NCBI GenBank assembly: GCA_048941015.1
Contig: JBHLNZ010000005.1
Coordinates: 1 to 64,000 of the forward strand
Direction of reading: 5' to 3'
Length of the DNA stretch: 64,000 bases
Source: Promethearchaeota archaeon
GTDB lineage: Archaea; Asgardarchaeota; Lokiarchaeia; Sigyniarchaeales; SOKP01
The notes under the pieces were generated by a model. It was not told the DNA's origin, searched no databases, and worked only from the letters and a program-made list of their open reading frames with translations. Positions within the stretch are counted from its first letter, which is position 1, and every line of letters begins with the position of its first letter. Position numbers and translations under genes: made by a program. This document shows, one piece after another, positions 60,704 to 62,844 of this stretch.

Positions 60704-62683
60704 TTATTCTTTAAAGTAAAATGCGCTCAATTCTGAAGTAATTAATCCTTTCAAAATATCTTTTAGTTGTGCTTTATTTGAATTTAAAATACAATTAAAT
60801 ATAATTCCCCCATCAAGAATTTTCTCAAATTTTTTAAATAAGCGAATTTTTTTGTCTATTGAAAGATTTGAAGTATTTCTTACAATTTCAGTGCAATATT
60901 TAATTGAATCACTTTCTAAATCAAAATTATGAAGATTTGATGAATTAAGAAGGTATTTATCGTCATGGGGCTGGCAAAGTAAAAACTTTTCTTGTTCTTT
61001 TTCATTTTTTTCTTTAATTAATTGTTTTAATAGATTTAAAATTTTCAAGGCAAATTTTTCGCTGGATTCTAATCTATCTAGTTCAATACCACAATGAATA
61101 TTAATAGCTCGATTCAAACCAGAAAAGCTTATTGCTTTCAGAGAAGAATCGAGCCAATTGTTATTTGTAATATTAAAAAATTCGTTAATAAGAAAATTCC
61201 AGTCATTCAAAGATTGTAATTTCTTTTGGGTCAGAGATTTTTTAATATCAAAAAGCTTGAATACTGAATTTAATCTTTCAGAAAGAAGATCATTAAAACG
61301 ATTATCATTTTGATTTGATTGGAGAGCGATTGCATGTAAATTAATTAAAATCTTATCTAATATTATTTGGTTTTTGTAAGATTCATTTTTTTTATAAATT
61401 AGAGGGTTTATAATCGTTGAATTTAAGAGAAATGAATTAGTATTCTTGTAAAAAATGATATCATTAAATAACTCAGAATCGGTAAATTGATTTACATAAG
61501 CATCATTTTTCAAAAAAGAATAGTCAAATAGTATTGTAGGTTTATTCAGAATTTTATATCTTTTATTATAAGATTGTATAAAATCTAAAAACTTCAGACT
61601 TTTTTCATTTTTAGAGGATTCAGGATTGCATTTTTCCCTATACGAAAATTCTAAAGATAGATGAGGCTTATCATCATAATAACGATTATTAAATTTAATT
61701 ATCTCTGATAGTAAAATCCTATTAATTGAAGAATTATTATCAGAAATTGGAAAATGAGAAAGAAAATCTCTGTTAAAATTTCCTAATAAGATATCTTCGG
61801 AAAAGTATGCATTAAATCTTGTTAAAGTTTCAAAAAACTTAAGAATTATATGATTTAAATCGAAAGAATTTGTACTTTTATTTAAAGTATATGAATACTG
61901 CTTAGCAAGAAAATCTAAGATAGAAGAAGAATTGAAATAAAAACCTAAGGATCTTAAACTCCAGTAATTTAAATTGAGTAAAGTTATTTCTCCAGATAAA
62001 TATAAATCAGCTAAATCTTTAGGTAATAAGTTTAATAATAAAAATTGTTCTGATGCATCAGATCCAAGCTTATTTAAAAAAGCTTCTGGATTAATTATTT
62101 GATTTTCAAAATAGCTGAATGCTTCACTTGGTGGAGTCCCTAAACGAGTCAGTTTATGTCTTATCTCTTCTAATCCGTTTTCCAGTAAAATTCCATTAAT
62201 ATATTCTCTCATTAAAGGAGCTGTAAGGTATTCAATATTAGCTTTCGAAAGTCTTTCTTCTACTTCATTAGCTATTTGTTTTGCAAGAAATCTCTCCAGT
62301 TCACCTTCATTTATTAGATATTCTTCTATTTTTTTTACATTAAAAGGTTCTTTTGAGTATTTTGACGTTCTGATCATTATTGTTTTGTTCTGATCGTTAA
62401 TAACTTTTTCAATTGATAGTATATTCTTTAAAATTTGTTTTCCGAGAGAATTCAGATAATATCCATCATCGGATAAATCGATATAATTCCCATTTTTTAA
62501 AGCTTTTAGATGAAAAGAAAAGTTAATTGAACCAGGATTATTACCTAATACCTCTTTTTGTAAATTAGAAAAAGAGAGAGGTCTTTGAATAGTGTTTAAT
62601 TTCTTTAAAATATCTATCCTAACTTTCTGACCCAATATTTTAAGGTGCTTTTCTATATTATCTGTGTTTTTGTCGGAATCCAA
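60704..62683 (-). CDS. wHTH + ATP-cone + degenerate class III ribonucleotide reductase (NrdD-like) fusion
   Basis: ArsR-like wHTH aa 10-90; ATP cone IRTSK...LTAPLMRE...TRLG; NrdD-like remnants without catalytic motifs. Confidence 0.75.
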   Translation of the reverse strand: MDSDKNTDNIEKHLKILGQKVRIDILKKLNTIQRPLSFSNLQKEVLGNNPGSINFSFHLKALKNGNYIDLSDDGYYLNSLGKQILKNILSIEKVINDQNKTIMIRTSKYSKEPFNVKKIEEYLINEGELERFLAKQIANEVEERLSKANIEYLTAPLMREYINGILLENGLEEIRHKLTRLGTPPSEAFSYFENQIINPEAFLNKLGSDASEQFLLLNLLPKDLADLYLSGEITLLNLNYWSLRSLGFYFNSSSILDFLAKQYSYTLNKSTNSFDLNHIILKFFETLTRFNAYFSEDILLGNFNRDFLSHFPISDNNSSINRILLSEIIKFNNRYYDDKPHLSLEFSYREKCNPESSKNEKSLKFLDFIQSYNKRYKILNKPTILFDYSFLKNDAYVNQFTDSELFNDIIFYKNTNSFLLNSTIINPLIYKKNESYKNQIILDKILINLHAIALQSNQNDNRFNDLLSERLNSVFKLFDIKKSLTQKKLQSLNDWNFLINEFFNITNNNWLDSSLKAISFSGLNRAINIHCGIELDRLESSEKFALKILNLLKQLIKEKNEKEQEKFLLCQPHDDKYLLNSSNLHNFDLESDSIKYCTEIVRNTSNLSIDKKIRLFKKFEKILDGGIIFNCILNSNKAQLKDILKGLITSELSAFYFKE

Positions 62684-62823
62684 TTTAGTTTCAGAATTTG
62701 TCTTGTTGTTAAAAATTGCTTAACTAAATTATAATTTTATCGGTATATAAAAATTTAGGAATTCTGCTTACTATATATCGAACCTGATAATATCCGGGTG
62801 ATATTTTTCAATAAGTTCAGAAA

Positions 62824-62844
62824 AAATCTCAATATATGAGATTT
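62824..62844. promoter_or_regulatory. Inverted repeat between rps7 and the HTH/ATP-cone gene
   Basis: AAATCTCA-ATATA-TGAGATTT. Confidence 0.35.

Follow-up and report, generated by a model that had tools for sequence, protein, structure and literature searches.

The subject of this analysis is a gene on the minus strand, at positions 60704-62683 of a window of 64,000 nucleotides, by which we mean the whole stretch analysed (positions 1 to 64,000 of contig JBHLNZ010000005.1 of a Promethearchaeota archaeon, assembly GCA_048941015.1, 3.59 Mb and 95% complete). Judged by its sequence, the product is a catalytically dead scaffold of NrdD, the class III ribonucleotide reductase (RNR) subunit, which has lost all radical chemistry and carries a winged helix-turn-helix (wHTH) domain at its N-terminus. 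The gene probably encodes an undescribed archaeal regulator of DNA-precursor supply, since a rare sequence box, CCGAYAAAA, is common to it and to the two working reductase genes of the genome. As to its mode of action, we lean towards a dimeric, nucleotide-responsive regulator that would act via this box on nrdD, on the class II reductase gene and on its own gene. To our knowledge, the control of archaeal RNR genes is largely unknown. Asgard archaea, to which the source organism belongs, are the lineage closest to eukaryotes.

Fold of the protein and loss of catalysis

The gene is one intact open frame of 659 codons that starts with TTG, at a position occupied by Met in homologues. A protein on record is 100% identical to the product and has the same domains; named homologues come from Hodarchaeota, Lokiarchaeota/Promethearchaeota and Odinarchaeota. 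The gene and its three domains are laid out as follows.

60704..62683, minus strand: whole gene for the wHTH / ATP-cone / dead NrdD protein, 659 aa, TTG start, TAA stop
62420..62644, minus strand: ArsR/SmtB-type wHTH, residues 14-88, the fold spanning residues 1-100; Pfam DUF7347, 47 bits
62129..62383, minus strand: ATP-cone, residues 101-185, among the two most constrained parts; superposed on 7p37
60707..62098, minus strand: ten-stranded alpha/beta barrel of the NrdD type (residues 196-659), devoid of catalytic residues and of the glycyl-radical domain; superposed on 8p27

In Pfam, the wHTH was recognised at residues 14-88 as DUF7347 (PF24038; 47 bits, cut-off 27.6), relatives passing the cut-offs of HTH_5 and HTH_20 as well, and NRDD (PF13597) was matched at residues 443-648 with 55 bits, the cut-off being 26.2. 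The NrdD equivalog TIGR02487 of NCBIfam gave 30 bits against a cut-off of 326. A profile built from 18 family members aligned collinearly with the active NrdD of the source genome (hhalign, 98% probability, 515 columns, 91-662 against 18-631 of 711), the collinear stretch beginning with the cone and taking in the whole barrel. A comparison of folds was needed because phmmer with the single sequence returned no reductase from the PDB and the family profile gave there only a weak match to NrdD.

An AlphaFold model of the whole protein, computed from an alignment of 114 sequences, reached a mean predicted local distance difference test score (pLDDT) of 88 and a predicted template modelling score of 0.77. 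Its best PDB matches were class III reductases throughout, with class I and class II enzymes next at Z ~20. The model superposed on P. copri NrdD (8p27, chain A) with Z 29.1 and a root mean square deviation (rmsd) of 3.8 A over 441 aligned residues, and on T. maritima NrdD (4coj) with Z 26.7 from residue 101 to residue 659; Foldseek matched the T. maritima enzyme with E 1e-16. The C-terminal end of the model coincides with the end of the NrdD barrel, before the glycyl-radical domain. In a second model, of residues 1-195 alone (pLDDT 85), residues 1-103 matched HxlR, YodB, SmtB and DNA-bound NolR with Z 11-12 and rmsd 2-3 A over 88-100 residues, some of these matches being repressors bound to DNA. 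Residues 100-179 matched the ATP-loaded cone of NrdR (7p37) with Z 12.0 and rmsd 1.6 A over 79 residues, and the cone also resembled those of 5olk, 5im3 and 9d3x; its fold is that of an ATP-cone, with a beta-hairpin and four helices. Pfam, profile alignment and superposition thus agree with the architecture proposed in the initial annotation, namely a wHTH, an ATP-cone and a whole scaffold derived from NrdD.

The residues that catalysis requires are gone. The stretch LADLYLSGEITLLNLNYWSLRSLG of the product, with its strand motif LYLSGEITLLNLNYWSLRSLG, aligns to AHLYGDIHVHMLRYFDLRPFC of the active NrdD, both His and the Cys being lost. Further landmarks line up in order (NLHAIAL with NLPRYAY, ISFSGLN with IGFTGLN, LDGGII with VEGGVI), so that the NrdD-collinear motifs and lost residues first read from the letters proved correct in alignment. 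The finger-loop CC of the active enzyme (in its SQCCRKF loop) has no counterpart, and the second active-site Cys after the RP(F) strand is a Gly. Nor is there, as the initial annotation had it, a counterpart to the CxxC..CxxC Zn ribbon and RITGYY of the active NrdD: the protein stops at the end of the NrdD barrel. These losses were followed in 112 wHTH-bearing relatives, comprising 64 long forms of ~700-780 aa and 48 short forms. Cys occupied the first catalytic column in only one of the 112, and the finger-loop columns lacked Cys in 107. The CxxC pairs were kept by 45 of the 64 long forms, as opposed to 5 of the 48 short ones. Two long forms retained an RxxGY-like motif after the Zn ribbon, the catalytic Cys being absent in both; a third RxxGY-like match sits inside the barrel of a short form.

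One could ask whether the barrel still performs some non-radical nucleotide chemistry. It is under purifying selection, and motifs persist in it across the family: a GG near the C-terminus, an invariant His573, N448 and G522. However, the family varies at the position that corresponds to the PAE-motif Glu, the residue bridging to the substrate in P. copri NrdD (PMC11226230), and conservation is concentrated in the wHTH and the cone, not in the barrel core. We therefore hold a surviving enzymatic activity to be very improbable.

Working reductases, selection and history of the family

An intact RNR elsewhere in the genome, for which a check had been proposed, was indeed found. The active NrdD (711 aa) has all its motifs, and an NrdG2-type activase is present. 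A class II reductase of the RTPR type (TIGR02505, 419 bits) with an N-terminal ATP-cone is encoded at C59:5018-7258 (+), equivalent to L078:519-2759; a whole-genome search with PF02867 missed it, and it was recovered via its ATP-cone and confirmed as RTPR. The likely start of this class II gene is the ATG after GGAGG, not the upstream TTG.

Another dead paralogue of NrdD, 601 aa long, is also encoded in the genome (C1:18207-20012 (+), equivalent to L002:1180-2985); it lacks the wHTH, the finger-loop Cys, the Zn ribbon and the glycyl loop. Several genomes of the same family have open frames of ~600-630 aa whose N-termini are similar. Two other NrdD relatives, P0223 and P0267, have two good ATP-cones and an NRDD match that ends at ~504 of 562; they represent another lineage without the glycyl-radical domain.

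The distribution of the wHTH-bearing gene was searched in 200 genomes of the phylum, 40 of them in the family of the source genome. Within that family, the 660-aa form was present with an intact frame in 38 of the 40 genomes. The order S12-S7-[gene]> <pyrB, L44e-S27e recurred in 29 of 29 loci, as far as the flanks reach. Pairwise ratios of nonsynonymous to synonymous substitution rates (dN/dS) were ~0.2 overall, with ranges of 0.04-0.34 (wHTH), 0.08-0.26 (cone) and 0.14-0.31 (barrel); the wHTH was among the most constrained parts in several pairs.

These data bear on the idea of a decaying pseudogene, or of a mis-assembled, truncated nrdD, which the missing catalytic parts and the public annotation as an anaerobic reductase might suggest. 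The ~660-codon frames and the low dN/dS speak against it. A frameshifted glycyl-radical tail, which had been named as a sign of a pseudogene, was not found in the flanking DNA, and just 33 bp are left before pyrB. Genome-wide, the glycyl-radical loop was matched in nrdD alone; a weak second match on another contig (C122, E 0.002) covers just the stretch before the loop. In two genomes (G008 and G171, loci L012 and L013) a TAA stands at the position of codon 8, but this apparent stop precedes the start, which appears to be a downstream Met (MLEKQL..). Conservation and selection refute the pseudogene reading, to which we give practically no weight.

An exhaustive homologue search yielded 619 cluster representatives. 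Longer wHTH forms were found in Jord/Freyarchaeota, Atabeyarchaeum, Baldrarchaeia and Odinarchaeia, plus six further Asgard families of the phylum sample, and these older, longer forms still hold the Zn ribbon. A quick maximum-likelihood tree, in which active NrdD was thinly sampled, placed every wHTH form in one clade (support 100), with the short forms as a clade nested within it (support 99). The 601-aa paralogue was sister to active NrdD (support 100) and the two-cone forms without glycyl-radical domain made up a third group. From these groupings, the fusion of wHTH and NrdD looks single and old, and the radical domain looks to have been lost several times.

Could the protein be a partner of the active reductase, forming for example a heterodimer with NrdD via a retained dimer interface, in which the wHTH would serve protein contacts rather than DNA binding? 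The helices that follow the cone (SEQFLLLNLLP..LADLYLSG) are highly conserved and common to active NrdD, and NrdD paralogues without wHTH and without glycyl-radical domain do exist in the 601-aa protein, P0223 and P0267. On the other hand, two ArsR motifs, the recognition-helix signature (S.HLK.L) and R..IL, are invariant in the family, the fold matches wHTH repressors in their DNA-bound state, and the strong constraint on the wHTH fits this partner role poorly. Such a role is, in our estimate, rather improbable.

The CCGAYAAAA box and a proposed regulatory role

CCGAYAAAA(T) was found four times at the three genes. One copy lies in the leader of nrdD, 87 nt ahead of its start, and one in the leader of the class II gene, 49 nt ahead of its ATG. 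The wHTH gene has two, one after its TATA box and one in codons 3-6, as follows.

62668..62676, minus strand: CCGACAAAA box inside codons 3-6 of the gene, with base-level constraint in orthologues
62735..62743, minus strand: CCGATAAAA box directly after the TATA-like TTTTTATATA (62744-62753), found in the closest relatives L005, L008 and L011 only

The sequence occurs 76 times in the genome, with 18 copies sense-oriented at -200 to +40 of an open reading frame (frames of at least about 45 codons being counted); four of these 18 belong to the three genes, namely two to the wHTH gene and one each to nrdD and the class II gene. Among relatives, the box was kept in 21 of 22 nrdD leaders and in ~10 of 30 class II leaders, namely the closest ones. 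It was absent from 19 of 20 nrdD 5' regions, scanned directly, in a family with higher G+C where our search found no wHTH gene. In the copy inside the coding region, codon 3 reads NCC (TCC, GCC, ACC or CCC, hence Ser, Ala, Thr or Pro) and codon 4 GAC, each in 26 of 27 orthologues; over the rest of the orthologous genes, the share of NCC among NCN codons is 11% and that of GAC among Asp codons 16%. Since the bases stay while the amino acid changes, the comparison of orthologous sequences shows selection on the nucleotide sequence at codons 3-6. The downstream start in L012 and L013 removes this coding-start box in G008 and G171.

The best-conserved sequence before the wHTH gene is another element:

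62786..62804, minus strand: direct repeat ATATCACC-N3-ATATTATC, period 11 bp, conserved, ~121 nt upstream of the start codon

It was present in 28 of 30 orthologous loci at a distance of 95-135 nt, mostly 120-123, and is unique in the genome, scoring 28.7 bits with the next best match at 17.4, the level of shuffled sequence. Together with a TATA-like box and a ATAATTTAGTTAAGCA block, it is one of three upstream blocks kept in relatives at 45-70% protein identity. The repeat is a candidate autoregulatory site. A role as a regulon-wide operator was ruled out, as it is confined to the promoter of the wHTH gene.

Nucleotide binding at the cone is plausible. Invariant or nearly invariant positions (R105, S107, E112, F114, E126, R159, E160, R175, R180 and G182) are clustered in the cone and the following helices. 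The Asgard-wide family to which the product belongs appears to descend once from the class III subunit NrdD; it has lost all radical chemistry, retains ATP-cone and barrel as a scaffold and has acquired a winged helix of ArsR type at the N-terminus. For its action we propose the following scheme. The protein would dimerise as NrdD does, and ATP or dATP bound at the cone would shift it, in the manner known from NrdD and NrdR, together with the pair of wHTH domains attached to it. This movement would alter binding to the box at nrdD, at the class II gene and at the protein's own gene; the dimer might bind either the box or the unique ATATCACC-N3-ATATTATC repeat. The outcome would be NrdR-like, without any relation to NrdR in the DNA-binding part. 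In a broader version of the proposal, the family would be the RNR-specific regulator of transcription that has been missing in Asgard archaea, a whole reductase turned into a ligand-sensing domain. Its cone would read ATP/dATP, its former specificity site possibly the balance of deoxynucleoside triphosphates (dNTPs), and it would set class II, class III and its own expression via CCGAYAAAA. This version is tentative, and we rate its chances slightly short of even.

Several observations weigh against a box-binding nucleotide sensor. The ATP-cone profile PF03477 matched residues 102-173 with 18.8-22.5 bits, below the cut-off of 25.8, even if relatives of the same family reach 28-37 bits. The canonical Lys-Arg pair, which binds phosphate in the NrdR cone (K50/R51, PMC9110341) and in P. 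copri NrdD (Lys7/Arg8, PMC11226230), aligns to Thr106-Ser107, flanked by an invariant Arg105 and by Lys/Arg108 (R-T-S-K); the R-T variant is also seen in active Asgard NrdD. The 18 start-proximal copies of the box are not far above chance. In the source genome, the box does not precede nrdG, pyrB or the 601-aa paralogue, and it is missing from most long-form lineages, whose genomic context was viewed in short stretches only. The box was recognised after inspection of these promoters, which makes its statistics post hoc, and a blind search for k-mers shared by three paralogue promoter sets returned AT-rich and TATA words only. It is furthermore a single asymmetric site, unusual for a dimeric wHTH protein. 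Finally, it may act at the RNA level or serve another binding factor. The NrdR-analogous transcription factor suggested in the initial annotation is partly supported: the shared box supports it indirectly, and the replacement of the Lys-Arg pair by R-T-S-K speaks against it.

The last of these objections leads to a reading in which the gene is a mere co-regulated member of a regulon for dNTP supply. Another factor, or an RNA mechanism, would read the box, and the protein would act otherwise on DNA, for example by coupling nucleotide status to replication or repair. Within the source family, the box is sense-oriented at all three genes and may lie within their transcripts; a lone asymmetric site is atypical for ArsR-type dimers; and the unique repeat before the wHTH gene could be its own operator. 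Nevertheless, in relatives of the same order the box lies near the wHTH gene in either orientation, and the inverted box fits and favours recognition at the level of DNA. Autoregulation combined with control of reductases is the known pattern of NrdR (PMC9110341). NrdR itself was not found, with no TIGR00244 match in the source genome, a negative to be read with the fact that no search for other regulators beside the reductase genes was made. We consider mere co-regulation unlikely, albeit worth bearing in mind.

Should a direct regulatory role hold, this would be an unmistakable example of an entire enzyme reused as the sensing part of a transcription factor. In any event, the conserved dead reductase with its DNA-binding head provides a concrete candidate regulator together with a candidate DNA site. 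The analysis also corrects a systematic misannotation: public records label the product 'anaerobic ribonucleoside-triphosphate reductase' and list these dead proteins as active anaerobic enzymes, so that metabolic reconstructions from Asgard genomes can be misled.

Related systems, neighbouring sequences and minor observations

The closest known relative is NrdD itself (PF13597; T. maritima 4COI-4CON, P. copri 8P23-8P39, phage T4 1H79), homologous over the ATP-cone and the whole barrel with Z 26-29. With archaeal-type NrdD the product has N-terminal motifs in common (an RT.. hairpin, L(T/S).P..RE and TR(L/I)G), but it lacks the finger-loop Cys, the second Cys, the substrate Glu, the Zn ribbon and the glycyl-radical loop and has the wHTH in addition. 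NrdR (Zn ribbon plus ATP-cone; TIGR00244; PMC9110341) likewise fuses a DNA-binding domain to an ATP-cone, the cones superposing at 1.6 A, and is described as rare in archaea (PMC9110341). As with NrdR, the candidate targets of the product include reductase genes and its own gene. The differences from NrdR are an ArsR-type wHTH instead of the Zn ribbon, a 460-residue dead reductase barrel, a CCGAYAAAA box unlike the palindromic NrdR boxes, and a K-R phosphate pair that is not conserved. The ArsR/SmtB and HxlR/YodB repressors have the same fold (Z 11-12) as well as the signature motifs found in helix 1 and the recognition helix; unlike in ArsR/SmtB, the effector domain of the product would be the cone and barrel, not the wHTH dimer itself. 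The paralogues without glycyl-radical domain (the 601-aa protein, P0223 and P0267) are also dead or truncated NrdD scaffolds with an N-terminal cone, but they stem from independent losses and have neither a DNA-binding domain nor the shared box. In the literature on DUF7347, Asgard NrdD, ATP-cone plus winged helix and pseudoenzyme reductases, we found no description of this family.

The region around the gene has a G+C of ~25%. rps12-rps7 lie upstream on the same strand at a spacing of 223 bp, and pyrB is convergent with the gene at a stop-to-stop distance of 33 bp. The convergence on pyrB, pointed out at the outset, is real and conserved within the source family, yet pyrB carries no CCGAYAAAA box. 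Between rps7 and the gene lies a further element:

62824..62844, minus strand: dyad (9-bp hairpin with a T-run behind it), ~65 nt downstream of the rps7 stop codon; folding energy -8.7 kcal/mol, z -2.6

This dyad had been put forward as a possible operator. Its sequence is not kept by relatives, and downstream of rps7 it folds into a hairpin with a U-run; it is probably the rps7 terminator.

Two other candidates for a shared site were rejected. The block AAATATTAACGWTAATAA of the nrdD leader had 189 matches in the genome compared with 186-237 in shuffled sequence and none in promoters of wHTH genes. A GTTAA core, seen at fixed positions in three promoter sets, is contained in 45% of random 200-nt windows. 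An Rfam scan of the leaders gave no match.

The leader of the active nrdD (L001:~950-1131, contig C58) is conserved over ~160 nt before the start; it holds a TATA-like box, the near-palindrome TATTAACG(T/A)TAATA and the CCGACAAAA box. The class II promoter contains a AGGTAGGTTAAGGCA block resembling the nrdD leader. Elsewhere in the genome, CCGAYAAAA lies 66-90 nt upstream of two small paralogous ribbon-helix-helix-like frames (..YPSRSE.IR.A.REFL..; C100:1535-1747 (-) and C122:77401-77691 (+)) and at +12 of an RNase HI-like frame (C28:7772-8221); these occurrences may be due to chance. Upstream of the wHTH genes of three long forms from one other Asgard family (L130, L134 and L135), a conserved CCGAT(C/T)GTTAATTAAG combines a CCGAT core with a GTTAA core.

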